Source of the DNA: an uncultured Gammaproteobacteria bacterium
GTDB taxonomy: Bacteria > Patescibacteriota > Microgenomatia > 2-02-FULL-39-11
Assembly: GCA_964446235.1 (NCBI GenBank)
Contig: CAYUNW010000004.1
Span: 141 to 64,140 of the forward strand
Direction of reading: 5' to 3'
DNA: 64,000 nucleotides
Shown in pieces: positions 11,222 to 64,000 of the stretch. The notes under the pieces were generated by a model. It ran no database searches, was not told the origin of the DNA, and was given only the letters and a program-made list of their open reading frames with translations. Within the stretch, counting starts at the first letter, position 1. Each line of letters begins with the position of its first letter. The position numbers and the translations under genes are program-made.

Positions 11222-11504
11222 AAAATCAGCGAAAAAGAAACTTAATCAGGATAAAAAACGTACAATCGTCAATCTTATTATTAAAAAAAATCTAAAAGAA
11301 GTAGTAAAAAAATTCCTTAAAAATCCTGATCCTACTAAGTTAAAAATTGCTTTCAGTAAAATAGATATAGCTTCAAAAAAAAATATTATTCATAAAAATA
11401 AAGCTAATAGGATCAAAACAAGGTTATCAAAGAAATTAGTATTATCTAGTCCAAAAAAATCTTTATCAGATAAAAAATCCCCAAAAAAAAGATCCTCAAA
11501 ATAA
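11211..11504 (+). CDS. rpsT: 30S ribosomal protein S20 with Lys-rich C-terminal tail
   Basis: MPVTKSAKKKLNQDKKRTIVN is the S20 N-terminal signature. The listed ORF start (11154) is an upstream extension through the promoter. Confidence 0.85.
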   Translation: MPVTKSAKKKLNQDKKRTIVNLIIKKNLKEVVKKFLKNPDPTKLKIAFSKIDIASKKNIIHKNKANRIKTRLSKKLVLSSPKKSLSDKKSPKKRSSK

Positions 11505-11530
11505 CCACAATAGAGTGTATAATATTATAG

Positions 11531-12088
11531 ATGCCCGAAAAAAGAAAAAAGATAAATATCAACCTCATTATTAAAAAAGATGAGGATATAAATTATTCAG
11601 GACAATTATTATCCTGGGCTATTAAATACGGCAGATATATAATCATTCTTACTCAAATTTTTGTTTTGTCTGTATTCTTTTTGAGATTTAAACTCGATAG
11701 AGATCACACTGATTTAAAAGATTCTGTTACCCAAAAACAAGCAATTGTTGAATCAATAACAGATTTAGAAACCGAAATCAAACATGTTCAAAATGTCATT
11801 TCACATGTTAAAGAAATCACGTCAAATCAAGATTTAATCCAAAAAATTGTTTTTCTGTTAGAACAGATTACACCTTCAGATATGATCTATTCGAAATTAT
11901 CCATAACAAATCAGGAAATAAGTTTTGAAGCTTCGGCGTTAAATCTTAAAAGTTTTAATTATCTTTTAAAAAAATTGTTATCCGAAAATAAATTTTCAGA
12001 TATCACCTTAACATCTATTACAAGACGAATAGATGGTAGAATCGAATTTTCATTAAGTGCAAAAATTAATAAATCGGGTTTTATTTAA
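11531..12088 (+). CDS. PilN-like type IV pilus assembly membrane protein
   Basis: Short basic cytoplasmic N-terminus, one TM helix, a coiled coil, then a C-terminal alpha/beta region in a PilN-like arrangement. Followed by a PilO-like gene. Confidence 0.4.
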   Translation: MPEKRKKININLIIKKDEDINYSGQLLSWAIKYGRYIIILTQIFVLSVFFLRFKLDRDHTDLKDSVTQKQAIVESITDLETEIKHVQNVISHVKEITSNQDLIQKIVFLLEQITPSDMIYSKLSITNQEISFEASALNLKSFNYLLKKLLSENKFSDITLTSITRRIDGRIEFSLSAKINKSGFI

Positions 12089-12895: not shown

Positions 12896-14275
12896 ATGTA
12901 TAAAAAACAGAAAAGGCTCCCTACACCTTTAGCTTTATTGATAATAATATTTGGATTATCTAGTATGATTTATCTGGATAATCATTATACTTCTTTGACT
13001 ACTTCAGCTAATAAACCAATAATTCCATCTGAGATACGTATAACTAACGTATCCGATAGCTCTTTTTCAATAAATTATCTTACAAATAATGAAACTGCAT
13101 CTTCAATTGAGTTATCTAAAAATAAAAAAATCTATTTAGACGATTTGGATACGGACAATATATCCAGACCTAGATATACCCACATGATGACAATGAAAAA
13201 TCTATCAGCCAATGAATTGTATACTATTAAAATAATCCAAAAGGGTTGTAATTCAAAAGAATATTGCCCAGATATAAAACAAACTACAGGTCCTAAACTT
13301 GATAATTATCTTGAAATATCCCCTTTAAAAGGTAAAATCATCGCAGAAAACGGTCAACCAGCAGAAGGATCGATTGTCTATCTTATTTCAGATAAAATTT
13401 CTCCGCTTTCCACCAGAGTAGACAGTGCTGGTTTATGGATTATTCCTTTAAATAACCTTAGAACTACTGACCTTCTTTCCCGCCCTCAATTAACAGATGA
13501 AACTCAATTTTCTATTGAAATTGCTCAATCACCAGAAAGAAAGGCTTATGCAAAAATTGACTTTTCAACAATTAAATCTACAACTGATCTCCCTGTTATG
13601 CAAATAGGTCAATCATATGATTTTTTAAATTTTCAATCCAAAAATGATTTATATACAAAACAATCTACTAATGTTTTAGGTGATTCTGATTATCTTTCAA
13701 ACTTATCTAATTCAACCGAATTAAATAAACCTTTAGAAAAAATTGATATTATTTTCCCTAAAAAAGAACTAGATACTACTACAGATAAACAACCAAGATT
13801 AAGAGGTGTAGGAATTCCCAATACCGAACTTACAATTACCATCAACTCTATAACTCAATCAACAAAAATAAAAGTTAACAATGATGGAATATGGACTTAT
13901 AGGCCAAATATTCCTCTCAATCCAGGCATACATACAGTTACATTAACAGGGTTTGATGAAAATGGAAGATTGATTTCAATTAGTAAACAGTTCATTGTTT
14001 TAAAAAGCGGTGAACAAGTATTAGGAGATTCTACCCCGTCAGCATCACTTACTCCAACAGGTTCTAACATATCTCCAACAGCTAGTATTTCTTCCACGCC
14101 AATTCCTTCATTAATACCCAGTATTACACTCCAACCCACAAACAGACCTACTTATCCTCCTCCTACAATAGGAATATCACCTCCACCAACCGGAAATTCG
14201 AATGCATTATTATTATTTGTTACTGGTGCAACCGGAATTCTTCTTTTAGGAGTAAGCATCTTTACTCTATTATAG
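12896..14275 (+). CDS. large surface protein (FN3-like, CarboxypepD_reg-like and Ig-like modules; S/T/P-rich stalk; C-terminal TM anchor)
   Basis: N-terminal signal anchor. PSEIRITNVSDSSFSINYLT (FN3-like). GKIIAENGQPAEGSIVYL (carboxypeptidase-regulatory-like). Ig-like TELTITINS...GIHTVTLTGFDENG. A Pro/Thr/Ser-rich linker, then PPPTG followed by a terminal hydrophobic helix. Confidence 0.5.
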   Translation: MYKKQKRLPTPLALLIIIFGLSSMIYLDNHYTSLTTSANKPIIPSEIRITNVSDSSFSINYLTNNETASSIELSKNKKIYLDDLDTDNISRPRYTHMMTMKNLSANELYTIKIIQKGCNSKEYCPDIKQTTGPKLDNYLEISPLKGKIIAENGQPAEGSIVYLISDKISPLSTRVDSAGLWIIPLNNLRTTDLLSRPQLTDETQFSIEIAQSPERKAYAKIDFSTIKSTTDLPVMQIGQSYDFLNFQSKNDLYTKQSTNVLGDSDYLSNLSNSTELNKPLEKIDIIFPKKELDTTTDKQPRLRGVGIPNTELTITINSITQSTKIKVNNDGIWTYRPNIPLNPGIHTVTLTGFDENGRLISISKQFIVLKSGEQVLGDSTPSASLTPTGSNISPTASISSTPIPSLIPSITLQPTNRPTYPPPTIGISPPPTGNSNALLLFVTGATGILLLGVSIFTLL

Positions 14276-14292
14276 ATTTACTGATCATTCAA

Positions 14293-15387
14293 TTAATTCA
14301 GGCTACAATTTGAATAGATGCTACATTTTATATATTCATGTATTTGAGAAAAATCCTTTGAAATCGGTATCAAAACCCACTGACCGTCATATTCCTCAGT
14401 ATTTGGATGAATTAGTAATCCTCCATCTTGCATCTCATTTTTTACATCTGTAAGATTTACGGTTTTGATGTTATTTTCATTTAATCCATAAAGATATTTA
14501 CCTAAAATTAATAGTTCAGTTAAATTTAAATCAGTCTTTATGTATTCTTTTCCAATCATGTATAAAGGTATCAATTTTTTTACTTTTTGAACCAACGATA
14601 TTTTATTAAATTTATTTTTCAAAGCTTTTATGACCTGTTGTTGTCTTATACTTCTAGCAAAATCAGTGCCTTGATCATTATTTGCTTTTCTACTTCTAAC
14701 ATATTTCAATGCTGTTTTGCCGTCCATAAATTTCCATCCTTTTTCAAAAACAACAATTTCATACCTACATGCTAATGAAGCGCTTTCGTTACATATTTCG
14801 TTTTCTTTCCCAACAATTGGATATTTATCATCTATAAATCCTTCTTCTATAAAAACATCAACGCCCCCAAACAAATCAATTATTTTTTCAAAAGCGGTAA
14901 AATCCATTAATATAGAATACGGAATAGGTTGTCCTACAACTTCTTCTACAGTCGATTTGGCCATTATTAATCCCCCGTTTTCCTTTTTTTTCTCACCGTA
15001 ATAGTACGCTGTGTTTATCTTTGCTTTTAAACTGGGTATCCATAAATCCCTTGGGATTGAAGTTAAATAAGCTTTTTTATTTTCTAGATCGAAATTTAAA
15101 TAAATTATTGTATCGGTCAAATCAGCTCCATCTGAATTATCCCCAGAAATCCCAAGAAGTATTATATTTACTTTGTTATCGTTGGTTTTAATAATTGATT
15201 TATTGTCTTTTAAAATTAACGTCTTTAATAAATTAAAGTTTATTCCATTATTACCTAAAGTGTTTATGAAAGGTAATAAATAACTATAAAAAAATACTAT
15301 AAAAAAAACCAGAGAAATAACTGGAAGTAGATAGATTAATGGTTTACGAAATTTAATAAATTTACGGTTAATGTTTCTTAATCGCAT
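14293..15387 (-). CDS. LytR-CpsA-Psr (LCP) family cell-wall glycopolymer ligase
   Basis: N-terminal TM helix. LCP core NIILLGISGD...DLTDTIIYLNFDLENKKAYLTSIPRDLWIP and ALKYVRSRK. Confidence 0.8.
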   Translation of the reverse strand: MRLRNINRKFIKFRKPLIYLLPVISLVFFIVFFYSYLLPFINTLGNNGINFNLLKTLILKDNKSIIKTNDNKVNIILLGISGDNSDGADLTDTIIYLNFDLENKKAYLTSIPRDLWIPSLKAKINTAYYYGEKKKENGGLIMAKSTVEEVVGQPIPYSILMDFTAFEKIIDLFGGVDVFIEEGFIDDKYPIVGKENEICNESASLACRYEIVVFEKGWKFMDGKTALKYVRSRKANNDQGTDFARSIRQQQVIKALKNKFNKISLVQKVKKLIPLYMIGKEYIKTDLNLTELLILGKYLYGLNENNIKTVNLTDVKNEMQDGGLLIHPNTEEYDGQWVLIPISKDFSQIHEYIKCSIYSNCSLN

Positions 15388-16063
15388 TTAGAATATTTAT
15401 AATCAAATCCCAAAAAGATAACACTTCCAAACTTGCACCACCAGGTAAAACACCATCGATTGACTTATTGTTAATGTAATCAGCCACATTGTCCTTATTC
15501 ACGCTTCCGCCATATATTCCAAGTTGATCTTTTTCAGTTTTAATTTCTGATAATATTTTTGCGGCATTTTCAGGTAACTCAGCTTCTCCACTACCTATCG
15601 CCCAAACAGGTTCATAAGCGATAACTGAAACTCCTTCAGGAACAAAATCATTTTTTCCTGATATGCAGTAAACGGGTGTTAATCCATATTTAATTGCCTG
15701 TATTGTTTTTTTATTAAGTATTTCATTATCTTCACGAAAATATTTCCTTCTTTCTGAATGTCCTATAAGAACAAATTTTACATAATCGACCACTTGAGAA
15801 GCAGAAACTTCACCCGTGTAAGCACCCTGTTCATATGGAGATAAATTTTGAACTCCTAACTTTAATGGCAACTCGTTTTTTCTAATAAATTCCGACATTA
15901 TTTCAAGGTGTATGTAAGAGGGGCAAATTACAATCTCTAATTCATTGAATGTATTTTTACTTTTTTGCGAAATAATATTTTTAAAATCATTTAACCATTT
16001 CTTAACATCACTAATATTTTTATTACTTTTCCAATTACCAATAATAATTTTCTTTTTTGTCAT
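15368..16063 (-). CDS. tpiA: triose-phosphate isomerase
   Basis: IIGNWKSNK, IGHSERR and AYEPVWAIGSG. The ATG at 16063 (MTKKKIIIGNWK) is preferred over the listed TTG at 16075. Confidence 0.92.
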   Translation of the reverse strand: MTKKKIIIGNWKSNKNISDVKKWLNDFKNIISQKSKNTFNELEIVICPSYIHLEIMSEFIRKNELPLKLGVQNLSPYEQGAYTGEVSASQVVDYVKFVLIGHSERRKYFREDNEILNKKTIQAIKYGLTPVYCISGKNDFVPEGVSVIAYEPVWAIGSGEAELPENAAKILSEIKTEKDQLGIYGGSVNKDNVADYINNKSIDGVLPGGASLEVLSFWDLIINILNAIKKH

Positions 16064-48661: not shown

Positions 48662-49648
48662 ATGCAAGACTTTTTATCTAAACTCCAAAATAAGAAAGTT
48701 CCATTCATTATGGCTATCGCTGGAGACAGCGGAAGTGGAAAAACAACTTATTCTTCAGGAATTACCAAATTATTCGGTCATGACTTAGTTAAAACAATAA
48801 CTATGGATGGTTACCATAAAGAAAATAGAAAACAAAGAGAAATATCAAAAAAATTACCGCTTGATCCTCTTTCAAATAATTTGGACTTATTCAAAACTCA
48901 CCTTTCCCAACTGAAAAAAGGTGAAGTAATCAATTTACCGATTTATAATCATCATAGCGGCGACTTTGAAAAACCTGTCGAATTCAAACCTACTCCGATA
49001 ATTATCATCGAGGGTCTGCATAGCCTATATCCTGAATTTCTTGAATACATAGATTTTTCCATATACGTGGATCCGGATCGGGATATCAAATGGGAATGGA
49101 AATATGAAAGAGATGTCAATATTCGTCATCATGACGAAAAACCTCTTATAGAAGAAATGCTTGCTCGTGAAGCGGCTTATAAAAGATGGATAGATTTCCA
49201 AAAAACAAATGCGAATGTTGTTATAAAAATATCCCAAAGCCGAATTAGACAATTAGCCAAATATGAATTTATCGGACAACTTCCGAAACATACATATTAT
49301 GTAACAATGATATTGGATCAGGCAAAAATAACCTTACAACCTTTCACCTTATCTTTTGATATATCTCTTAAAGCAGATGAAAGCAATTTGCCTTTTAGTA
49401 TTGCCTGCGTACCCAGTATATATTGGGGTAGAAACACGACCGTAATCCATATAGACGGATTAATTCCTCAAAAAACCGTCTGTGAATTTGAAAATAATAT
49501 TAAAAAGACAGTTGGTGTAAATCCAGACACTGCATTTTCTCAAAATCCTGAATGTTTTGGAGATATGAACAATAAATATAACGGAACACAACTGGCACAA
49601 ATTATTATCCTTTACAGATTCTTAGAACAATTACAACACAACATCTGA
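48662..49648 (+). CDS. prk: phosphoribulokinase (class II, PRK/uridine-kinase fold)
   Basis: P-loop IAGDSGSGKTT. The stretch MDGYHKENRKQRE...LDPLSNNLDL...PIYNHHSGDFEKP...IIIEGLHSLYPE...DFSIYVDPDRDIKWEWKYERD parallels cyanobacterial/archaeal PRK. The PRK-specific C-terminal extension ends YNGTQLAQIIILYRFLEQL. At 328 aa it is too long for Udk. Confidence 0.75.
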   Translation: MQDFLSKLQNKKVPFIMAIAGDSGSGKTTYSSGITKLFGHDLVKTITMDGYHKENRKQREISKKLPLDPLSNNLDLFKTHLSQLKKGEVINLPIYNHHSGDFEKPVEFKPTPIIIIEGLHSLYPEFLEYIDFSIYVDPDRDIKWEWKYERDVNIRHHDEKPLIEEMLAREAAYKRWIDFQKTNANVVIKISQSRIRQLAKYEFIGQLPKHTYYVTMILDQAKITLQPFTLSFDISLKADESNLPFSIACVPSIYWGRNTTVIHIDGLIPQKTVCEFENNIKKTVGVNPDTAFSQNPECFGDMNNKYNGTQLAQIIILYRFLEQLQHNI

Positions 49649-49651
49649 ATA

Positions 49652-50902
49652 TTATTTATCATTCCCCCATTTTTCCAAAGCTTTAGCTAAATTTTGATCA
49701 TTTTTGGAATAATCTTCTAGCGTTTTTCCATCCATTGTTGCTTTCATGGCAGAAGCCACCGCTTGCGCACCCTTTAATGAACCGTCAGGATGCCCATGAA
49801 TACCTCCACCGAAATTAAACAACATATCCTTACCTAATATATTGTATAAATCCGGTATAAGACCTGGATATAAACCTCCAGAGGCAACAGGTAAGACTGT
49901 TTTAAGACCATACCATTCCGATCGTAAGAAATTATTCATATTCTGAACCTCTTCTTTACCCCCTTCCATTTTTCCGACTACAGTACCAGTATGTAAAGAA
50001 TCAACTCCTGCAAGTCTTGATAATTTTGCGATAAAAAGCATAGTCATTCCATACTGCTTGGATCTGGTAAATGCTGCATGCATAGCCCGATGAGCATGTA
50101 TCATTTTATGGTAGTTCTTATTTCGTATACCTTGAACAGCAGCAAATCCTGCTGTTAAAACATCTATCATATGGCAATTTCCGCCATTTTGCACTACTGC
50201 GTCTGCTCTATTTACCATTTCTTCATAAGACGCTGTGATATTGAATGCATAAATTTTTTCACCACCTTTACCTAAGTACCCTTTTTCTTTCATTCTCCTT
50301 GTCATTTCCGTCACTCTTTCATAAAACGGATTGAAATCCTGGCTGGTCAGATTTTCGTCGTCTTTGACTAAATCCAAACCCCCATCATATACCGCCATTG
50401 CTGCATCGCTATGATCATTTGTGGACAATCCAAGCTTAGGTTTGATAATCGAACCCATCAATGGTCTATTACTAATACCGGTTATTTCTCTTATACCATC
50501 TATTCCCAATGCCGGACCGGGAAATGAAACAACATACTTTTCCGGAAATTCTATATCAATTATTCGAAGAGTTGCTACTTCAGCTAAACCAAATATATTT
50601 CCGGCAATTGATGATAATAATTGTGGTATGCTGCCGGGTTCGAAAAGTTCTAATGTATATGCTACCTTCAATAAACCACTCGATTCATCCATTTCAATGA
50701 CTCTACCGTGTAAATGATCCCACAATGTCTTCTCGTTTAATCCGATATCTGTCCATGTCCCTACGGACGATTCTGCCGCAACGCCTCCGGCTGTCCTATC
50801 AAAAGGCTGACCTTCTGATTTTAGTTGAAAAGTTACCGTTATATAATCTTCTTTATTTATATTTTCACCTATTGATAAATAATTTTTATATGGATTACTC
50901 AT
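49652..50902 (-). CDS. rbcL: ribulose-1,5-bisphosphate carboxylase/oxygenase large subunit, form III type (416 aa)
   Basis: The catalytic set is retained: GSIIKPKLGL, LVKDDE, HAHRAMHAA, HTGTVVGKMEG, PVASGG and FGGGIHGHP. There is no small-subunit gene. It follows an R15P isomerase gene. Confidence 0.92.
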   Translation of the reverse strand: MSNPYKNYLSIGENINKEDYITVTFQLKSEGQPFDRTAGGVAAESSVGTWTDIGLNEKTLWDHLHGRVIEMDESSGLLKVAYTLELFEPGSIPQLLSSIAGNIFGLAEVATLRIIDIEFPEKYVVSFPGPALGIDGIREITGISNRPLMGSIIKPKLGLSTNDHSDAAMAVYDGGLDLVKDDENLTSQDFNPFYERVTEMTRRMKEKGYLGKGGEKIYAFNITASYEEMVNRADAVVQNGGNCHMIDVLTAGFAAVQGIRNKNYHKMIHAHRAMHAAFTRSKQYGMTMLFIAKLSRLAGVDSLHTGTVVGKMEGGKEEVQNMNNFLRSEWYGLKTVLPVASGGLYPGLIPDLYNILGKDMLFNFGGGIHGHPDGSLKGAQAVASAMKATMDGKTLEDYSKNDQNLAKALEKWGNDK

Positions 50903-50912
50903 AATTATTTTT

Positions 50913-51812
50913 TTAAATTTTAATAAAATTATAATTTAATAAAGCTTTTTGTTTAACCTGATTATTTTCCAATATTCCTTCTTCGCACACTATTTTTATA
51001 ATTTCAGAATATGAAACGAAGTCAAAAGCCGGACTGTATATTTTAAGTTTAGATGTAGCCTCTGGCCACACCTCTTCACTTTTTCTTTTTTCTATCAATT
51101 CATAAGAAAAATCACGAGGATCATATTTCAACAAAATACTCATTGAATATAAAGGGGTTTTATACTCTTTACATGCTAAAGCTATTCCCATACTGCCAAT
51201 TTTATTTACAAAACCAGTTTCTGTTAATAAATCCGCTCCGATAAATACAGCATCGATTTTATTATAAACACCGCTTATTATACTGGTTGCCGCATCATCA
51301 ATTATTAAAGTTACATCTTCAATTCCTCCTTCTAAGAGTTCTTTCACGGTCACTCTACCCTGAAACAATGGACGCGTTTCAGTAGCAATAACCGAAAATT
51401 TCTTTCCTTGTTTTTTTGCTTCTAAAAACATTGAGGTTACCGTTGAAGAATGACAATGAGTTAGATAGCAACCGCCATCTTTTATCATAGACATGCCAAC
51501 TTTTGACATTCTCATTTTTGCAGATGCTATAAAATTTTTATATTCTTCAATTTTTTTCACATATTCGCCTCTTGAATGTAAATTGGAATTAAAAACATAT
51601 CTTACGGCGTTCTGAGCTAGAGGCTCTGTTGGTCTTGCATATGCTAAATCATCGGCAATATCTTTCAATTTTTTATGAAGCTGATCCAAAGAAAGATTTT
51701 CAAACATCTTCAAACCTTCAATCACTCCATCCAAAGTAGCTAAAGCCACATTTGTAGCGCCTTGAATTCTTAATTGAATTATGTCTTCTTTAAGTTGTTT
51801 AATTCTGTCCAT
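50913..51812 (-). CDS. ribose-1,5-bisphosphate isomerase (eIF-2B alpha/beta/delta-like, e2b2)
   Basis: eIF-2B-related fold (THCHSSTVTSMF, VIATETRPLFQGR, VFIGADLLTETGFVNKIGS). Sits directly upstream of RuBisCO. Confidence 0.8.
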   Translation of the reverse strand: MDRIKQLKEDIIQLRIQGATNVALATLDGVIEGLKMFENLSLDQLHKKLKDIADDLAYARPTEPLAQNAVRYVFNSNLHSRGEYVKKIEEYKNFIASAKMRMSKVGMSMIKDGGCYLTHCHSSTVTSMFLEAKKQGKKFSVIATETRPLFQGRVTVKELLEGGIEDVTLIIDDAATSIISGVYNKIDAVFIGADLLTETGFVNKIGSMGIALACKEYKTPLYSMSILLKYDPRDFSYELIEKRKSEEVWPEATSKLKIYSPAFDFVSYSEIIKIVCEEGILENNQVKQKALLNYNFIKI

Positions 51813-55242: not shown

Positions 55243-55737
55243 TTATTTTAACCATTCAATGAAGTCACAACCGGTAGCGCTTCGCGTCTGAGGATCCCAG
55301 GAATTGGTCGAGCATTTTTTCATTCTTTTACCGCTTGATGATGTATAAATAACCAAATTATTTCCGCACTTGGGACATTTTTCATCCAGCTGTTCTATAG
55401 TTCCTTTTACCCATTCAATATAATCACAACCTCCTGCAGTTTTCGTATTCGGATCCCAAGTGGCTGTAGAACATTTTTTCATTTTTTTGTTAAATCTGGT
55501 CATAGTCAATACCAAGTTTGAACCGCACTTGGGACATTTTTCATCCAGATTTTGAGGTTCAAAAGGTAACCATTTTACATAATCACAACCTTCATTTTTT
55601 CTGGTCTCTTCATTCCATTTACCGTTGGAACACCTTTTAAGTTTGCGACCGGATTTGGTTGTTACTTCTTCTCCTAAAGTACTTCCGCATTTGGGGCAAA
55701 TATCATCTGTTTCAACTGTTTTTTCATTATTACTCAT
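55243..55737 (-). CDS. stand-alone protein of three tandem topoisomerase-type C4 zinc-finger modules
   Basis: Three units of about 45 aa: CPKCGSTL...KRCSN...GCDYVKW, CPKCGSNL...KKCST...GCDYIEW and CPKCGNNL...KKCST...GCDFIEW. Confidence 0.6.
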   Translation of the reverse strand: MSNNEKTVETDDICPKCGSTLGEEVTTKSGRKLKRCSNGKWNEETRKNEGCDYVKWLPFEPQNLDEKCPKCGSNLVLTMTRFNKKMKKCSTATWDPNTKTAGGCDYIEWVKGTIEQLDEKCPKCGNNLVIYTSSSGKRMKKCSTNSWDPQTRSATGCDFIEWLK

Positions 55738-57907: not shown

Positions 57908-59218
57908 ATGAAAAGTAAACATTTCGTACTTTTAGGTCATCTTGACCACGGCAAATCTACACTAATCGGCAGGCTACTTTGGGATTTGGGAAAAATCGAT
58001 AAAAATACCAAAAGTTATCTCATGGAAATCGGTTCAAAAAACAACCGCCATTTTGCCTATGTATTGGATTTCAAACAGGAAGAAAGAACAAGAGGAATAA
58101 CAATAGATGTCGGACATAACAAGCTTATAATTGATGGGTACTCTTTTACATTTTCAGATGCTCCAGGACACCAAGTATTCCGAAACAAAATAGATTCTGC
58201 AATAAAAGAATCTAATGCGGCTATTATCTGTTTGGCTGCAGACGATAAAATTACCGATGAACTCAAAAAAAGCATCTTATATGCCCATAAGAATAAAATT
58301 ACTGATTTTATTGTTTGTATAACTAAGATGGATTTAGTCAAATATAAAAATGTAATCTTTGAAAAATTATCAAGTCAAATATTACCTTTGCTAAAAAAAA
58401 GTTCATCACTGCAATTTATACCTACTTCTGCCCTAAAAGGCGACAATATAACAAAATCGTCAAAAAAAATGCCTTGGTATCAAGGTGTAACACTAATAGA
58501 AAGTTTTAAAAATGCCAATACAAAAGAAAATTCCGTCAATGATTTGGTTAGACAATCCAAAGAAATTTTTAAAAAAGCAGAAAAAACTTTCCGTCATCCA
58601 GTGATGTTATGGGCAGGTGGTAAAGACTCAACTGCTATGCTGGCTATAGCCAAAGAATTATATCCGAAAAAACTTCCATTCCCTCTACTTTTTATCGATA
58701 CAACTTATAAATTCAGCGAAACATACGATTTTATCAACTTACTCCAAAAAAAATGGAAATTAAATCTTTTAAGAATCACAAACAAAGAAGCATTGGAAAA
58801 AGGCGTCAATCCCTGGTCTGTGAACCACTTTACCTATTGCCATGAATTAAAAACAAAACCTTTAAAAAAAACAATAAATGATGAAGGGTATGACGGCGCT
58901 TATGTTGCTATCCGCTGGGATGAACATGGAATCAGAGGCAAAGAACAGTATTTTTCCAAAAGAACTGACCCGCCACATTACCGTATCCACCCGATGCTAC
59001 ATTGGTCGGAAAGTGAAATATGGCAATATATTAAATCCGAAAAGATACCGTATAATTCCCTATACGATAAAGAGGAGCATAACGGACTAGTCTACAGAAG
59101 TATTGGATGTTGGCCTTTTACCAAACCTATCCCAAAAGAAGGAGCAGATGAACGTTCAGGTAGAGAAGTTGATAAAGAGCGTCTGATGGAAAGTTTACGT
59201 TCTCTTGGATATATGTGA
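57908..59218 (+). CDS. single-chain sulfate adenylyltransferase-like fusion: CysN GTPase domain (N-terminal) + CysD PAPS-reductase-fold domain (C-terminal)
   Basis: N-terminal roughly 200 aa: GHLDHGKSTLIGRLL, ERTRGITID, DAPGH, TKMD and PTSALKGDNITKSSKKMPWYQG (CysN/EF-1alpha-like G domain, with no domains II/III). C-terminus: PVMLWAGGKDSTAMLAIAKELYPKKLPFPLLFIDT, RSIGCWPFT and ERSGREVDKERLMESLRSLGYM (CysD). Confidence 0.7.
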   Translation: MKSKHFVLLGHLDHGKSTLIGRLLWDLGKIDKNTKSYLMEIGSKNNRHFAYVLDFKQEERTRGITIDVGHNKLIIDGYSFTFSDAPGHQVFRNKIDSAIKESNAAIICLAADDKITDELKKSILYAHKNKITDFIVCITKMDLVKYKNVIFEKLSSQILPLLKKSSSLQFIPTSALKGDNITKSSKKMPWYQGVTLIESFKNANTKENSVNDLVRQSKEIFKKAEKTFRHPVMLWAGGKDSTAMLAIAKELYPKKLPFPLLFIDTTYKFSETYDFINLLQKKWKLNLLRITNKEALEKGVNPWSVNHFTYCHELKTKPLKKTINDEGYDGAYVAIRWDEHGIRGKEQYFSKRTDPPHYRIHPMLHWSESEIWQYIKSEKIPYNSLYDKEEHNGLVYRSIGCWPFTKPIPKEGADERSGREVDKERLMESLRSLGYM

Positions 59219-59221
59219 ATT

Positions 59222-61216
59222 ATGTTTATACTTCTTTCGAAAAATTTTTTTCAGAATAAAATTTTATTAAAAATTACCTTAATTTCAGCTCTCCTTTCCG
59301 GTTTTTTGTTTGCGATTTACGATCTAAGCTTTTTTATCTTATCCAATAATATTCCGCTTTTTAATTTTTGGGATTTTATCAAATTAACCTCTTTACCATT
59401 TGGATTTTACATTTTAATCGCTCTTATTATTTATCCTTTATTTTCGATATTTAATCACTTCATGTTCCAACTTTCCGGGTTGGAAATGTCCCCAAAAAAA
59501 GAAGCGTCTTTATTTTTTGCATTCTCAGTTTTTCTGACAACTGCTAAGATTATAGACAGTGCTATACAACAAGGGGCAAATACACGGAAAATCAGCTTAC
59601 CAATTGCTATTGTTATCGCATCTATAATTGCTTTTTTTTGTTATCAGAAATTAAGGAAATTTTTTCAAAAAAGAAGCACAACGGCACTAGGAAAATTAAT
59701 ATTCTCCTTTTCCGGATTGTTATTCACAGTATGGCTTTTTATGGTATGGTTTTTATATAAAGCCGATTATCCTCCAATACAAAAATCAGAACTCGTTGAT
59801 AAAATAAATATCGAGCAAAAACCGAATATCATTTTGATTATCTTGGATACTGTGAGAGCGGATCATTTATCCTCATATGGTTACAATAGACAAACAACTC
59901 CTAATATTGACACTTTTTCCGAACAAGGAGTTTTGTATACAAATGCAATTTCACAAGCTCCTTGGACATTACCCTCACATGCTTCCTTACTTACCGGTCT
60001 ATACCCCAGACAACATGGAGCAGATGGAAGATGGTTATGGCTTGATAATAATTTTTCAACATTACCGGAAATATTAAGTGACAACGGATACTATACAATA
60101 GGAATATCCAATAATCACAATTTTCATGTAAATACGAATTTACATCAGGGATTTGACAAATTTATATACACAAAAAGTTATCATTATAATTCATCAAATT
60201 TCTTTCTGACAAAAGTATTAAAAGACTTTTACGCACTTAGCAAATCGGAAAAAATCAAAAATCTTATCTCTGACATTACTTATTTCTTTTCCAGTAAAAA
60301 TATAAACAAGGACTACGGAGCTTTGTTTACAAATAAAGTTGCCAAAGATTATTTAAACTATTTAAATAACTCCAAAGTCCCCGTTTTTTTAATGATGAAT
60401 TATATGGAAGCCCACACTCCTCTTGGTGAAACTGCTGATAAAACTCTTTATCTTAAAGATTTAAATGTCTCACTCCGCGAAGCAAAAAGGTTAAGTGTAA
60501 AAGTTGACAGTGATTTAATAAAAACTTTCACTGGTGAGTGGAAACTTACTGAAAGAGAAATACAGATTATACATGCACTTTATGACGCTGATTTACACTA
60601 TTTGGACGAAAGAATTGGTGAGTTAATTAACTATTTAAAAGACATGAATTTGTTCGATAATTCCATGATCATAATTACTTCAGACCACGGGGAAAATTTA
60701 GGCGACCACGGTATCCTTGCTCATGAATATGATATACATCGATCGTTAGTACATGTCCCCTTAATAATTTATTATCCAAAATTTTTTCAAGCAAATTCTG
60801 TTATTGACAATATTACAGAAACAAAAGATATCTTTCCTACGGTCCTGGACATAGCTGGAATACAAAACCTAGAAAATGGTGAACTTTTAAAATATAGTCT
60901 CAGAAACAACTTCAAAAGAAATTTTGTTTTGTCTGAAAATGCAATCGGTGACCTATTCAGTACCGTAAAAAATACATTGGTAAAAAATCCCACCTTGGAC
61001 CAAAGAGTGATTACCGGAGAATGGCTAAATATTCAAAATAATGAATTAGAGTTTATCTCTAATATTTTGGGTGATAAACTTTATGACATAACTACCGATC
61101 CAAACGAATTAAATAATGTTGTTGATATCTATCCGCAAAAAACAAAAGAAATGAAAGAAAAATTAAATCAACGTCTAAGAGAAATAGGTTCATATTGGTT
61201 TGACTATAATCATTAA
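59222..61216 (+). CDS. membrane-anchored sulfatase-fold (alkaline phosphatase superfamily) protein, Thr-type active site, paralog A
   Basis: About 5 N-terminal TM helices. ILDTVRADH metal site. APWTLPSHASLLTGLYP stands in place of C/S-x-P-x-R. ITSDHGENLGDHG. The start lies 3 nt after the cysN-cysD fusion stop. Confidence 0.7.
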   Translation: MFILLSKNFFQNKILLKITLISALLSGFLFAIYDLSFFILSNNIPLFNFWDFIKLTSLPFGFYILIALIIYPLFSIFNHFMFQLSGLEMSPKKEASLFFAFSVFLTTAKIIDSAIQQGANTRKISLPIAIVIASIIAFFCYQKLRKFFQKRSTTALGKLIFSFSGLLFTVWLFMVWFLYKADYPPIQKSELVDKINIEQKPNIILIILDTVRADHLSSYGYNRQTTPNIDTFSEQGVLYTNAISQAPWTLPSHASLLTGLYPRQHGADGRWLWLDNNFSTLPEILSDNGYYTIGISNNHNFHVNTNLHQGFDKFIYTKSYHYNSSNFFLTKVLKDFYALSKSEKIKNLISDITYFFSSKNINKDYGALFTNKVAKDYLNYLNNSKVPVFLMMNYMEAHTPLGETADKTLYLKDLNVSLREAKRLSVKVDSDLIKTFTGEWKLTEREIQIIHALYDADLHYLDERIGELINYLKDMNLFDNSMIIITSDHGENLGDHGILAHEYDIHRSLVHVPLIIYYPKFFQANSVIDNITETKDIFPTVLDIAGIQNLENGELLKYSLRNNFKRNFVLSENAIGDLFSTVKNTLVKNPTLDQRVITGEWLNIQNNELEFISNILGDKLYDITTDPNELNNVVDIYPQKTKEMKEKLNQRLREIGSYWFDYNH

Positions 61217-61245
61217 TCATTCACTAATATGCATATATTAAAATA

Positions 61246-63210
61246 ATGAGAAGTTTAAAAATAAAAAAAATTTTATTGGTTACTTCATTAATCTCTGCTT
61301 TAACCGCCGGTAGTATTTTTGCATATTATGATATCAGTTTTTATATCATCACTTCCAAAACTTTCTTTTTTGGCTTCTATGAATATTTTATTACTGTATT
61401 TATTCCGCTTATGTCATATGTAATTCTTGCTTTAGTTTTCTTTCCATTTATGTCTTTGGTCTTTTTGGTTTTTTTAAAAATTAGTGGATATAAATTTTCC
61501 GAAATCAAAATATCAATCCTATTTTTTTCAATTAGTATATTGTTTCTTTCTTTAAAAATTCTTGACAGTATTATCTGGCAAAGTACGTTCTCCAGAATTT
61601 ATAGTATTCCGATAGCCATTATGCTGGCATCTATCATTGCTCATTATTTTTATTATTTGACCAATAACTTAACGGAAAAATTAGGATTTTTTAAGTCTAT
61701 AAAAATATTTCTTATTTTATATCTTTTGTTTTTCATTCTAATAAACTCGTTTTTGTTTTATAAATATAAAGCCGCGTATCCAACGCCTGATATCGACTTT
61801 ATCAATAATCAAAATAATAATCATTCTATAAAACCAAACATTATACTGCTTATTCTTGATACGGCCAGAACAGATCATTTTCCAGTTTACGGATACGAAA
61901 GAAATACAACACCAAATATCGATGCTTTTGCTAAAAAAAGTGCGCTTTTTCAAAATGCGGTATCACAAGCTCCTTGGACTTTACCCTCACACGCTTCGAT
62001 GCTAACCGGACTCTATCCAAGACAACATGGGGCAGACGGCAGATGGGAATGGTTGGACTATAATTTTGATACTTTAGCAGAAATATTGAAAAAAAATTTT
62101 TATTATACTGTCGCAATTTCAAATAATGAATATTTCTCCGAGAAAACAAATTTAAATCAGGGTTTTGATAAATTTATTTTTGTCAAAAACTATTCACAGA
62201 CAAAAGCAAGTCTTTTTTTGGTCAAACTTCTTACTGATATAAAATCAATACTTGAAGAAGATTTCCAAAAAAATCTGATTTCTGATATTGCCAATTTCAT
62301 TTCAGCAAAAGGTTTTAGAAAAGATTATAGTGCCTCTTTCACAAATGAAATTGCCTATTCATACCTAGACGAATTTAGTAGAACCTCTACACCATTTTTT
62401 TTAATGATTAACTATATGGAAACCCACAATCCATTGGGCGATACACAAAATAAAGATTTATACCTTAAAGAAATAAATGCTTCTTTATATGAAGCTTTAA
62501 GGGTAAGTGATCTGGCAAACTCAGGAAGAATTCCGGCGGTTTTTGAGGAATGGAAAATATCTGACAGGGAAAAGCATATCATGAATGCATTATACGATGG
62601 AGATTTGCATTATTTAGATAAAAAAATCGGCGAATTTATAAGCTTTTTAGAAAAAACTAATTTATTAAATAATTCTTTGGTGATAATCACCTCTGATCAT
62701 GGAGAAAACTTAGGTGATCATGGAATGCTTGCTCATTTATATGACATCAGAAGACCATTAATACACGTCCCGCTTTTATTATACTATCCGAAAATTTTTT
62801 CAGAGGGATCAATTATTGAAAAAACTGTAGAAACCAGAGATATCTTCCCGACAATACTTGAAATAGCAGGTATATCTTATGAAAAATATATAGACCCTAA
62901 ACCTTACAGTTTAAATTACCGGAATCGCCCTGATATTGCCTTTTCTGAATATATTGAAGGCGGTGATTTTGATTTTATACATCCATTGCTTTCAAATAAT
63001 CCAAATAGAAATCAAATGATTATAAAAGGAGAGTGGTTAAATTTCCATGATGGCGAATATGAATATATCTCGCATTATAATCAGGAATTTCTTTATAATA
63101 TACATAAAGATCAAAATGAGGATAATAATTTGGCAAATCAGGAAATTCAAAAAAAATTAATAATAAAAACAAAATTGGACCAATATTTAGATAATATTGT
63201 CACTTATTGA
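61246..63210 (+). CDS. membrane-anchored sulfatase-fold protein, Thr-type active site, paralog B (tandem duplicate)
   Basis: Same architecture and motifs as paralog A: ILDTARTDH, APWTLPSHASMLTGLYPRQHGADGRW and ITSDHGENLGDHG. Confidence 0.7.
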   Translation: MRSLKIKKILLVTSLISALTAGSIFAYYDISFYIITSKTFFFGFYEYFITVFIPLMSYVILALVFFPFMSLVFLVFLKISGYKFSEIKISILFFSISILFLSLKILDSIIWQSTFSRIYSIPIAIMLASIIAHYFYYLTNNLTEKLGFFKSIKIFLILYLLFFILINSFLFYKYKAAYPTPDIDFINNQNNNHSIKPNIILLILDTARTDHFPVYGYERNTTPNIDAFAKKSALFQNAVSQAPWTLPSHASMLTGLYPRQHGADGRWEWLDYNFDTLAEILKKNFYYTVAISNNEYFSEKTNLNQGFDKFIFVKNYSQTKASLFLVKLLTDIKSILEEDFQKNLISDIANFISAKGFRKDYSASFTNEIAYSYLDEFSRTSTPFFLMINYMETHNPLGDTQNKDLYLKEINASLYEALRVSDLANSGRIPAVFEEWKISDREKHIMNALYDGDLHYLDKKIGEFISFLEKTNLLNNSLVIITSDHGENLGDHGMLAHLYDIRRPLIHVPLLLYYPKIFSEGSIIEKTVETRDIFPTILEIAGISYEKYIDPKPYSLNYRNRPDIAFSEYIEGGDFDFIHPLLSNNPNRNQMIIKGEWLNFHDGEYEYISHYNQEFLYNIHKDQNEDNNLANQEIQKKLIIKTKLDQYLDNIVTY

Positions 63211-63243
63211 CCAGAGAAAAATTATTGATATTTAAAATCTATT

Positions 63244-63477
63244 ATGAAAAATATAATTATTTTTATAGTTTTATTCTTGATTTTCGTTTCTTCATTTTTT
63301 TTGTTTGTCCAAAAAACATATGCCTATTTGGATCCGGGAACCACTGGAAGCGCGTTTTCTTTTTTTTCCGGAATTATTCCTTTTATCCTGTTAATTTTGG
63401 GATTTTTAACTTTACCGTTTAGAAGATTGGTGCTTTTTATTTTAAAAAAAATAAAAAGCGCAAAAAATAAAAAATGA
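63244..63477 (+). CDS. small two-TM membrane protein
   Basis: 77 aa. TM helix, then AYLDPGTTGSAFSFF, a second TM helix and a basic tail. Its stop overlaps the next start (ATGA). Confidence 0.35.
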   Translation: MKNIIIFIVLFLIFVSSFFLFVQKTYAYLDPGTTGSAFSFFSGIIPFILLILGFLTLPFRRLVLFILKKIKSAKNKK

Positions 63478-64000
63478 AATTACTGATATTGGGAATTGAC
63501 GGTTTTGACTCTAATATTATCGAAAAACTCTGGGAAAAAGATAAACTTCCTAATCTTAAAAAATTGAAAACAAATTGGTCTTTCCGTAAATTAATCACCA
63601 CCAATCCTCCTCAAAGCCCGGTAGTCTGGGCTACAATAGCTACCGGTACTAATCCCGGACAACACGGTATTTTTGATTTTATTACGGTTGATTTCGATAC
63701 TTATCTGCCGAAATTATCAATTATAAAACCCAATAAAAATAATATATTCGGACTTCGCGCTAAATTATTTTCGAATACAATATCAACCAATCCTTATTGG
63801 TACTATACTTCAAAAGCAAAAATTCCCACCTCTACTACTAAGTGGCCGGTGACATTCCCTCCTCCCAAGGTTTGGGGCACCTCTATTTCTGGACTGGGAG
63901 TGCCGGATATCAATAATACTCTTGGCCGTTATACTTTTCTTACGACTGACGCTAATTATAAAAATCAGGATTTAAAAGGAGAAGTTATAAAAATTGATAA
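63474..64000 (+). CDS. alkaline phosphatase family protein (type I phosphodiesterase/nucleotide pyrophosphatase-like), 3' end cut by window edge
   Basis: Not in the ORF track because no stop falls in the window. My translation from the ATG at 63474 is open to base 64000: MKLLILGIDGFDSNIIEKLWEKDKLPNLKKL...TTNPPQSPVVWATIATGTNPGQHGIFDF. Confidence 0.65.
   Translation, partial: MKLLILGIDGFDSNIIEKLWEKDKLPNLKKLKTNWSFRKLITTNPPQSPVVWATIATGTNPGQHGIFDFITVDFDTYLPKLSIIKPNKNNIFGLRAKLFSNTISTNPYWYYTSKAKIPTSTTKWPVTFPPPKVWGTSISGLGVPDINNTLGRYTFLTTDANYKNQDLKGEVIKID

Follow-up and report, generated by a model that had tools for sequence, protein, structure and literature searches.

A single-chain EF-1alpha-like GTPase-CysD protein encoded with alkaline-phosphatase-superfamily genes: a possible PAPS-free sulfation module for envelope glycans

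Introduction

The GTP-regulated ATP sulfurylase CysDN, a heterodimer known from E. coli and P. syringae (PDB 1ZUN), combines the PP-loop ATP pyrophosphatase CysD with the GTPase CysN, and uses GTP hydrolysis to drive the production of adenosine 5′-phosphosulfate (APS) and pyrophosphate (PPi) from ATP and sulfate. CysN is accepted to derive from archaeal EF-1alpha through an ancient transfer, and this type of GTPase has no known role besides driving APS synthesis (PMC4342817). Here we describe an operon at positions 57908-64000 of a 64,000-nucleotide stretch of DNA (contig CAYUNW010000004.1; the whole stretch is hereafter called the window), in which a GTPase (G) domain and a shortened CysD domain form one protein chain and are followed by genes of the alkaline phosphatase (AP) superfamily. 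The chain shares with CysDN the PP-loop CysD module with the motifs GC.P.T and ER.GR..D...GY[FM] and an EF-1alpha-derived GTPase with the G1-G5 motifs, and its presumed chemistry is the same. Unlike CysDN, it is a single polypeptide that runs N then D, its GTPase is without domains II and III and its CysD without three loops, and it scores below all curated CysN and CysD cutoffs.

In NodPQ/NodH and RaxPQ/RaxST, dedicated sulfate-activation genes are attached to a modification pathway. The operon resembles these systems in that activation apparently serves to modify something on the surface or secreted, and not to make cysteine, here in a glycan-cluster setting. However, NodPQ/NodH and RaxPQ/RaxST rely on an APS kinase and a sulfotransferase dependent on 3′-phosphoadenosine 5′-phosphosulfate (PAPS), while neither was found in the window or in 28 related loci, where AP-superfamily genes stand instead. 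Well-established biological sulfation all depends on PAPS, or on aryl-sulfate donors in the case of the arylsulfate sulfotransferases (ASSTs), which have a beta-propeller fold and a His nucleophile and are unrelated in sequence to every protein of the operon. ASSTs are the only sulfotransferases known to work without PAPS and act outside the cytoplasm, and no enzyme is known as yet for many of the sulfated glycans of archaea and bacteria (PMC11625862).

Results

The G::CysD fusion is a conserved single-chain protein

The operon consists of five co-directional genes with nearly no spacing between them. The features are as follows.

57908-59218, + strand: fusion ORF (G domain and short CysD), 436 aa
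57908..58522, + strand: G domain of the fusion, aa 1-205, EF-1alpha/CysN-type GTPase, Pfam GTP_EFTU
58523..59218, + strand: short CysD-type PP-loop ATP pyrophosphatase domain, presumed to be the catalytic part of an ATP sulfurylase, aa 206-436, Pfam PAPS_reduct
59222-61216, + strand: paralog 1, five transmembrane (TM) helices and a sulfatase-fold (PF00884) domain, 664 aa
61246-63210, + strand: paralog 2, five TM helices and a sulfatase-fold (PF00884) domain, 654 aa
63244-63477, + strand: two-segment membrane hairpin peptide, 77 aa
63474..64000, + strand: AP-superfamily gene of PF01663 (nucleotide pyrophosphatase/phosphodiesterase, NPP, type), N-terminal 175 aa in the window, 599 aa on the parent contig

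The stop codon of the fusion (TGA, 59216-59218) and the ATG of paralog 1 at 59222 are 3 nt apart, gaps of 29 nt and 33 nt precede paralog 2 and the 77-aa ORF, and the stop of the 77-aa ORF overlaps the PF01663 start as ATGA, so that these two genes are coupled in translation. Since the PF01663 gene is cut by the window end, its full 599 aa were read from the parent contig JGI Ga0394875_0000224 (108.9 kb). This layout, with its 3-nt gap, two tandem sulfatase-fold paralogs of about five TM helices, two-TM peptide and ATGA overlap, is the one that an earlier description of the window from its letters alone (hereafter the sequence-only reading) had given.

Pfam analysis of the fusion detected GTP_EFTU at residues 5-182 (117 bits) and PAPS_reduct at residues 231-407 (136.5 bits), and no match to GTP_EFTU_D2, GTP_EFTU_D3 or eEF1A_C. 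At about residue 205, where the G domain ends, the chain passes straight into the N-terminal helix of CysD. ORF and Pfam analyses thus bore out, at its coordinates, the 436-aa chain in which an EF-Tu-type G domain without beta-barrels is joined to a shortened CysD.

We then searched 5.8 billion proteins for homologues of the fusion and obtained 13 clusters of full-length homologues, 435-446 aa long and 58-67% identical to it, in assemblies held by NCBI, JGI, ENA and Logan. Because the homologues stem from these different data sources, the fusion is neither a chance product nor a frameshift artefact. The GTPase motifs GHLDHGKS, RGITI, DAPGH, (N/T)KMD and TSA (G1-G5 and the switch I Thr) were kept across the 13 homologues and the PP-loop WAGGKDST was invariant, while FIDTTYKF, SIGCWPFT and ER.GR..DKE...LGYM were kept up to the final LGYM and the junction was also conserved. 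More distant fusions were identified by a HMMER scan of 1.84 billion cluster representatives: P0122 (420 aa, 38% identical) and P0121 (720 aa), which carries an additional N-terminal PF01663 domain. G and CysD domains in one chain, in that order, were found in the 13 clusters as well as in P0121 and P0122, indicating that the single-chain architecture is real and conserved. The sequence-only reading had taken the N-then-D order for a reversal of the usual one; the order is present, but it is no oddity within the clade, in which split operons also run cysN-like, AP, cysD.

Our literature search gave no description of a G::CysD chain, as that reading had suspected, nor of an association between CysD and the AP superfamily, and it returned nothing relevant on APS-dependent or AP-superfamily sulfotransferases or on sulfate activation in the candidate phyla radiation (CPR) or DPANN archaea. 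In public databases these proteins bear unspecific names ('sulfate adenylyltransferase subunit 2', 'phosphoadenosine phosphosulfate reductase', 'arylsulfatase A-like enzyme'). An AlphaFold2 (AF2) model of the fusion reached a mean predicted local distance difference test score (pLDDT) of 73.6 and a predicted template modelling score (pTM) of 0.66, with low confidence in the switch regions and the last 50 residues, and was not used as an argument for a CysDN-like interface. The other apparent CysD and GTPase fusion inspected, P0033 (L024), was set aside: on its error-prone long-read contig, frameshifts had split and merged a canonical cysD-cysNC.

The G domain is EF-1alpha-like rather than a typical CysN

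The sequence-only reading had called the G domain EF-Tu/CysN-type. The GTPase motifs are indeed present, but an EF-1alpha-like clade lies nearer to this domain than typical CysN does. The NCBIfam EF-1alpha model scored 170.5 bits on it versus 130.9-134.6 bits for the CysN models, whose cutoffs are 336-590. Similarly, a phmmer search of the PDB gave archaeal EF1A 3wy9 as the best match (155 bits) and P. syringae CysN (1zun_B) at 88.6 bits, and Foldseek on the AF2 fusion model ranked aEF1A first and 1zun_B twelfth. The G domain is 45% identical to a three-domain GTPase of Patescibacteria (P0075) and 33% identical to E. coli CysN. Taken together, these comparisons assign it to an EF-1alpha-like clade and not to typical CysN.

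Among full-length proteins, it is most closely related to three-domain GTPases whose genes adjoin those of short CysDs in DPANN archaea and Patescibacteria. The ones at L032 5951-7225 (P0075, Patescibacteria) and L013 5924-7228 scored 406-436 bits with the EF-1alpha model and 264-266 bits with the CysN model TIGR02034, and passed the cutoff of neither. Judged by these scores, the GTPase clade of the short-CysD partners stands between EF-1alpha and CysN, and its three-domain members may represent steps on the way from archaeal EF-1alpha to CysN.

The short CysD domain very probably makes APS

The C-terminal domain scored 158.8 bits with NCBIfam CysD PRK05253 (cutoff 195) and 123 bits with TIGR02039 (cutoff 396.6), and PDB CysD 1zun_A aligned to it. 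In an alignment with E. coli and NCBI-named CysDs, the CysD-type C-terminal motifs GC.P.T, ER.GR..D and terminal GY[FM] were present and the CysH motif ECGLH was absent, which marks this half of the chain as CysD-like and not CysH-like. Compared with E. coli CysD (30% identity), three loops of about 23, 27 and 14 aa are deleted, and the domain is a member of a 'short CysD' clade, whose proteins are about 230 aa long. It is 49-51% identical to short CysDs that adjoin APS kinase genes, and all conserved motifs are common to both. Owing to this homology, the GTPase partner, the TauE-type permeases alongside, and the APS kinase and sulfotransferase genes beside sister genes, the short CysD clade very probably makes APS. 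The catalytic core of the operon is thus a single-chain, minimal, EF-1alpha-like variant of CysDN.

Several further features of short CysDs were observed. Most of them (archaeal, kinase-linked, P0121 and P0122) have a CC pair together with a C..C pair, reminiscent of the four residues that bind the Fe-S cluster in bacterial APS reductases, so that an Fe-S cluster is possible. The clade of the window fusion has only Y-C and C-W-P-F at these places (58790-58810 and 59110-59130; residues about 310 and 400), and E. coli CysD has one Cys. The CysD C-terminal tail ..RL.xLGY[M/F/L] also ends several unrelated proteins of these operons (L013 3252-4820 and 5690-5911; L030 116-1351 and 2663-2884; L015 3365-3664; L039 5574-5873; L011 8808-9194, - strand), namely a PF01663 protein of 522 aa, small proteins encoded immediately upstream of the cysN-like gene with N-termini that appear ribbon-helix-helix-like by eye, and a 128-aa protein that is putatively thioredoxin-like by eye. 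The shared tail could be a docking peptide, perhaps for the EF-1alpha-like GTPase. Another short CysD, P0020 (50% identical, four Cys; L022/L023, 10001-10729), lies in a virus-like contig full of small ORFs that also holds ParB, DNA methylase, DNA ligase and an asparagine-synthase-like gene; it was not used for inference.

The membrane-anchored sulfatase-fold paralogs lack the formylglycine motif

Paralogs 1 and 2 are 47% identical and match Pfam Sulfatase (PF00884) with 168.5 and 152.3 bits, respectively. Hydropathy analysis predicted five TM helices in each, and the AF2 model of paralog 1 (pLDDT 79.6) also contained five. A Lys/Arg-rich loop precedes TM5 and, by the positive-inside rule, places the catalytic domain outside, so that the catalytic domains of both paralogs are predicted to face outward.

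S1 sulfatases carry a C/S-x-P/A-x-R motif that becomes formylglycine (PMC12421950). In both paralogs, W-T-L-P-S-H aligned to the C/S-x-P-x-R of these enzymes. The motif could be located in 88 of the 120 closest homologues and read T..H in 74 of the 88, S..H in 11 and C/S..R in none. Because W-T-x-P-S-H replaces C/S-x-P/A-x-R, no formylglycine can form in the TM paralogs, and we rejected them as true formylglycine sulfatases. The sulfatase fold that the sequence-only reading had reported stands, without the formylglycine motif. The metal-site residues D209, D214, D488 and H489 were invariant, and T249 is the putative Thr nucleophile.

The top Foldseek matches to paralog 1 were S1 sulfatases and phosphonate monoester hydrolases (TM-scores 0.6-0.7 normalised to the target), and no LtaS or EptA structure was among the top 50 fold matches. 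In NCBIfam, weak matches to EptA, CptA, LtaS and YejM extended over the TM-proximal and core regions, with scores of 45.5 for EptA (cutoff 561), 40 for CptA (cutoff 900) and 31 for LtaS (cutoff 970). The paralogs thus share fold and metal-site residues with S1 sulfatases and phosphonate monoester hydrolases but differ from them in the membrane anchor and the W-T-x-P-S-H motif. With LtaS, EptA (MCR-1), CptA and OpgB they share, as predicted by hydropathy and model, a five-helix membrane domain, an outward catalytic domain and a Thr nucleophile, whereas for the catalytic domain itself S1 sulfatases and phosphonate monoester hydrolases are much the nearer match. For their part, the known enzymes of the LtaS/EptA type draw phospho-groups from phospholipids, and nothing links them to CysD.

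The hairpin peptide and the PF01663 protein

The 77-aa peptide contains a signal-like segment, a YLDPGTTGS motif, a TM segment and a Lys/Arg-rich tail, and hydropathy analysis showed two hydrophobic segments. Homologous hairpin peptides occupy the same position in L005-L009, and all related Patescibacteria loci encode the hairpin upstream in a gene of its own. In other lineages the PF01663 protein itself bears this element, along with a third TM segment, at its N-terminus (701 aa in L021; 18 of 120 family members).

The PF01663 protein starts MKLLILGIDGFD and opens directly with the metal-binding GIDGFD; SDHGF was also read from the sequence, and the nucleophile is probably the Ser of PPQSPVVW. 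Pfam Phosphodiest (PF01663) scored 60.5 bits on the part in the window and 125 bits on the full-length protein. Sequence comparison of the PF01663 proteins with the PDB found no chain at E<=0.01, and NCBIfam gave no match; the protein belongs to a very large family named only 'alkaline phosphatase family protein'. Orthologues in L005-L009 are 40-43% identical to it. Hydropathy analysis revealed no signal peptide and no TM or hydrophobic segment in the PF01663 protein. The sequence-only reading had described three extracytoplasmic enzymes, which holds, as a prediction, for the two TM-anchored paralogs but not for this one.

Short CysD genes are linked to AP-superfamily genes

We next surveyed gene neighbourhoods by scans of genome and metagenome contigs followed by tblastn with our own query set. 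The order fusion, TM sulfatase-fold, hairpin, PF01663 was found in four non-redundant loci (the window, L005/6, L007/9 and L008), in which the partner proteins are only 32-43% identical; orthologues of paralog 1 come after the fusion in L005, L007, L008 and L009. The fusion homologues are therefore not scattered without linkage to the sulfatase-fold genes. The pair is not always adjacent, however, as the P0013 fusion lineage (labelled Patescibacteria) is without the sulfatase-fold, hairpin and PF01663 genes and has a 299-aa neighbour that is weakly PglZ-like, a type within the AP superfamily, in a Wzx/Wzy cluster.

Related operons carry the same partners in split form. In about 20 loci, a three-domain cysN-like gene, a 256-aa PF01663 gene and a short cysD follow one another with overlapping gene boundaries, and these loci often end in a TauE/SafE permease gene (Pfam 134 bits), whose product would cover sulfate supply. 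Their hosts include Iainarchaeum, Woesearchaeota and Saccharibacteria. Thermoplasmata loci have a soluble T..H sulfatase-fold gene directly upstream of cysD, and Iainarchaeum loci run PF01663, cysD, sulfatase-fold.

Moreover, many proteins are covalent fusions with the short CysD C-terminal behind an AP-superfamily domain that starts at about residue 5. They comprise PF01663-G-CysD (P0121), PF01663-CysD (P0132, P0141 and P0124) and Sulfatase-DUF4214-CysD (P0125, P0131, P0143 and P0147), and the sulfatase-fold domains fused to CysD carry the same Thr...His motif. The flanks of P0141 gave no clue. Among 32 long CysD-domain representatives, Phosphodiest was present in 16, Sulfatase in 11, APS kinase in two and inteins in three. 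Because the fused AP domains start at about residue 5 and have no signal peptide, they work in the cytoplasm, beside an ATP-using domain; as a general statement on AP partners, the extracytoplasmic location does not hold. The genetic coupling to AP-superfamily genes proposed by the sequence-only reading turned out to be stronger than claimed, extending from the four loci to split operons and covalent AP::CysD fusions.

Among the window ORFs of at least 150 aa, Pfam found no APS kinase, APS/PAPS reductase, sulfite reductase, canonical sulfotransferase or SulP/CysPUWA transporter, and tblastn with an APS kinase query gave no match in the window, in agreement with what had been read from its letters. 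Within 3 kb of the short cysD, 28 of 36 non-redundant loci had an AP-superfamily gene and no APS kinase, four had an APS kinase and no AP gene, four had neither, and none (0/36) had both. AP genes and APS kinase were thus mutually exclusive (Fisher p=0.0012, a value biased by the seeding of the survey described in the Discussion). No APS kinase, canonical sulfotransferase, cysH or sir was seen in the AP-linked loci. As for cysC near homologues, it does occur beside some sister short CysDs, but only where AP genes are absent.

In the four kinase-linked loci the short CysD adjoins a bona fide APS kinase (Pfam 130-177 bits in the two scanned). Of three such loci inspected, two held a confirmed canonical sulfotransferase (Sulfotransfer_1, 29.8 bits, L041; Sulfotransfer_2, 45.3 bits, L053), in glycosyltransferase clusters. 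The metagenomic loci L041, L042 and L053, in which short CysD goes with APS kinase and, in the two confirmed cases, with Sulfotransfer_1/2, have the same short CysD subtype as the window and lie in glycosyltransferase/methyltransferase neighbourhoods. In contrast to the window, they use the canonical PAPS route, with no AP gene and no GTPase within 8 kb. Altogether, an AP-superfamily gene fills, genetically and often covalently, the place expected for APS kinase and sulfotransferase.

Three minor observations concern these loci. Two of the three intein-bearing long CysD-domain proteins (Intein_splicing, LAGLIDADG_3) are fusions of CysD with APS kinase. Downstream of the module, L007 (6700-7590 and 9853-10329) and L008 (8695-9573 and 9574-10062) encode an EamA transporter of the DMT superfamily and a NUDIX hydrolase; DMT transporters include nucleotide-sugar and PAPS carriers. 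The contigs L009, L011 and L012 bear Patescibacteria/DPANN-type modules and are titled 'uncultured Gammaproteobacteria bacterium', and their bins are probably mislabelled.

The modules sit in envelope-glycan clusters

Wherever enough flank was available, the modules sat in envelope-glycan clusters. P0013 lies in a cluster of Wzx, Wzy, glycosyltransferase and methyltransferase genes, another locus contains Wzx, GT2, GT4 and DegT, and a Sulfatase-DUF4214-CysD protein is surrounded by a Wzm/Wzt ABC exporter, epimerases and GT1s. At L036 (features at 9697-11805 and 13466-15739), three GT4s, a UDP-glucose dehydrogenase, a putative epimerase (by eye) and a heparinase II/III-like protein (158+143 bits) flank an operon of cysN-like, 256-aa AP, cysD and tauE genes, and the locus looks like a cluster for an acidic, glycosaminoglycan-like polymer. 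GT-C-like PMT_2 and DUF2079 proteins lie near the module in L005. Aminotransferase genes are likewise among the neighbours in such clusters. These neighbourhoods fit a use other than cysteine synthesis, as the sequence-only reading had suggested.

Large polytopic membrane proteins were also noted beside the module. Those with PMT_2 and DUF2079 flank it in L005 (7680-9977 and 15305-17299). Beyond the PF01663 gene on the parent contig, a 281-nt gap precedes a 462-aa polytopic protein just past the window end (L001 17648-19036) with a weak DUF6798 match. They may be GT-C-type glycosyltransferases acting outside the membrane.

Discussion

We propose, as the most economical reading and one that is quite possible while falling short of probable, that the operon is a self-contained PAPS-free sulfation module for envelope glycans, in which GTP-driven APS formation feeds AP-superfamily transferases. 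GTP hydrolysis in the fused EF-1alpha/CysN-type G domain would drive the unfavourable reaction as in CysDN, a step suggested by homology and context. The AP-superfamily enzymes would replace APS kinase and PAPS-dependent sulfotransferases by consuming the activated sulfate, and their Ser/Thr nucleophile would pass the sulfuryl group to a glycan or lipid acceptor. More speculatively, the PF01663 enzyme, made together with the two-TM hairpin peptide, may act at the cytoplasmic membrane face, while the LtaS/EptA-like 5-TM Thr-type paralogs may finish the modification or edit it at the outer face, with the help of a donor that is either membrane-borne or exported. A broader and somewhat more tentative proposal is that PF01663-type and 'W-T-x-P-S-H' sulfatase-fold-type AP enzymes form a new class of sulfotransferases, widespread in Patescibacteria, DPANN archaea and Thermoplasmata, that take the sulfuryl group from APS directly or via a membrane carrier, would thereby dispense with APS kinase, PAPS and every known sulfotransferase fold, and are supplied by a minimal sulfurylase of EF-1alpha-like GTPase and short CysD, possibly near the ancestral CysDN.

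Were AP enzymes to use APS, there would be a new sulfotransferase class and a shorter sulfation pathway, and two very large families named only 'alkaline phosphatase family protein' or 'sulfatase-like hydrolase/transferase' would gain a function. It would also be explained why reduced-genome symbionts keep a costly GTP-driven sulfurylase. Regardless of the role of the AP enzymes, the single-chain G::CysD would be nature's own compact layout for making APS, of value to structural and biotechnological studies, and the EF-1alpha-like GTPases that go with short CysDs have a bearing on the descent of CysN from archaeal EF-1alpha.

Several points weigh against a PAPS-free sulfation module. To our knowledge, no AP-superfamily enzyme uses APS or acts as a sulfotransferase. 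A Ser that replaces formylglycine in S1 sulfatases traps a dead-end sulfo-enzyme, and sulfuryl transfer via Thr or Ser would therefore be unprecedented chemistry. The TM paralogs, the archaeal PF01663 and sulfatase-fold proteins of L021/L017 and some relatives with a twin-arginine translocation (TAT) signal are predicted to face outward, and APS is, as far as we know, not available outside the cell, so that a carrier or exporter must be postulated; the EamA/DMT transporters after the module in L007 and L008 are only a hint at a donor exporter. Both AP families are large and widespread (about 3,500 matches each, counted irrespective of CysD). The survey was seeded by CysD sequence patterns and hand-chosen loci, which biases the exclusivity statistic. 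Finally, the absence of cysC, cysH and sulfotransferase genes covers the window and the surveyed loci, with about 40 kb of the parent contig and the remaining genome outside its scope.

In one alternative, the AP enzymes are ordinary phosphoryl-transfer enzymes (LtaS/EptA-like phospho-group transferases, NPP-like phosphodiesterases or pyrophosphatases) that decorate the envelope in parallel with sulfation or pull the sulfurylase reaction forward through removal of PPi or AMP, with the APS consumer encoded elsewhere. We regard this as somewhat unlikely, yet a serious contender. Thr/Ser nucleophiles are typical of phosphoryl-transfer members of the superfamily, and the TM paralogs do match EptA, CptA, LtaS and YejM, if weakly. 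The sulfatase-fold family has His instead of the Arg of C/S-x-P-x-R, and Pfam places the third AP gene in a phosphodiesterase/pyrophosphatase family. The wide distribution of both AP families also fits, and a PPi-removing partner fused to CysD would make thermodynamic sense. On the other hand, it stays unexplained why APS kinase and sulfotransferase are absent exactly where AP genes are present, why three structurally different AP types (256-aa PF01663, about 600-aa PF01663 and sulfatase-fold) are all fused or adjacent to CysD, and why none of the 28 AP-linked loci contains an APS consumer. Furthermore, the nearest folds to the TM paralogs are S1 sulfatases and phosphonate monoester hydrolases rather than LtaS/EptA.

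That last resemblance, in sequence and in fold, would suit a sulfate-scavenging module, in which AP enzymes, extracellular or cytoplasmic, hydrolyse organic sulfate esters and the sulfurylase immediately captures the sulfate for assimilation. Outward-facing and TAT-signal relatives exist, TauE-type permeases adjoin CysD in several loci, and a sulfate-releasing domain fused to CysD would channel substrate. However, the formylglycine motif, the hallmark of efficient sulfatases, is missing in all 88 motif-bearing homologues, and cysC, cysH and sir were seen in no AP-linked locus. The neighbourhoods are those of glycan biosynthesis and not of nutrient uptake, and it is hard to see what purpose a hydrolase would serve between a Wzm/Wzt exporter and glycosyltransferases. 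AP genes are also absent from the canonical PAPS-type loci, where extra sulfate supply should be just as welcome. Scavenging is thus distinctly unlikely.

Alternatively, the CysD-like domain might adenylylate another oxyanion or a phospho-compound, and the AP enzymes would then transfer that group. All short CysDs score below the curated cutoffs and are without the three canonical CysD loops, the GC.PCT motif is altered in some AP-fused forms, and Thr/Ser AP enzymes seem better suited to phosphorus centres. Yet every conserved motif is common to AP-linked and APS-kinase-linked short CysDs, and the CysDs are accompanied by a CysN-like GTPase and by TauE/SafE permeases (Pfam 'sulfite exporter TauE/SafE'), which we take as transporters of sulfur oxyanions. 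With driving APS synthesis as the sole known role of the GTPase partner (PMC4342817), we consider a different anion very improbable. The possibility that separate cysN and cysD genes were merged by an assembly error or a frameshift, to which the sequence-only reading had drawn attention, is effectively refuted: artefactual D-N 'fusions' such as P0033 on its error-prone long-read contig do occur, but 13 clusters from independent assemblies have the same architecture with a conserved junction and no beta-barrels, and P0121 and P0122 keep the same order.

Other features of the window

The remaining window is that of an ordinary small bacterial genome of Patescibacteria type, and the host of the module is probably a small bacterium of this group. 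It encodes hrcA-grpE-dnaK-dnaJ, MurJ, YceG, an LCP protein, FemAB, PilN/O and a MraY-type transferase, as well as a form-III-like RuBisCO, a PRK-family (PF00485) kinase and an IF-2B-like isomerase. Scans for tRNA genes and Rfam families found nothing in the window. A promoter scan gave 71 promoter-like sites against 57 expected and a terminator scan no + strand terminator within the operon, both uninformative in such AT-rich DNA.

The PRK-family (PF00485) kinase, RuBisCO large subunit and IF-2B-like genes lie side by side at 48662-51812, a set that presumably belongs to the nucleoside-salvage pathway known from CPR and DPANN. At 55243-55737 on the - strand, a 164-aa protein consists of three zinc ribbon repeats of the C..C type (CPKCGS...C..W), to which the Pfam zinc-ribbon matches are faint.

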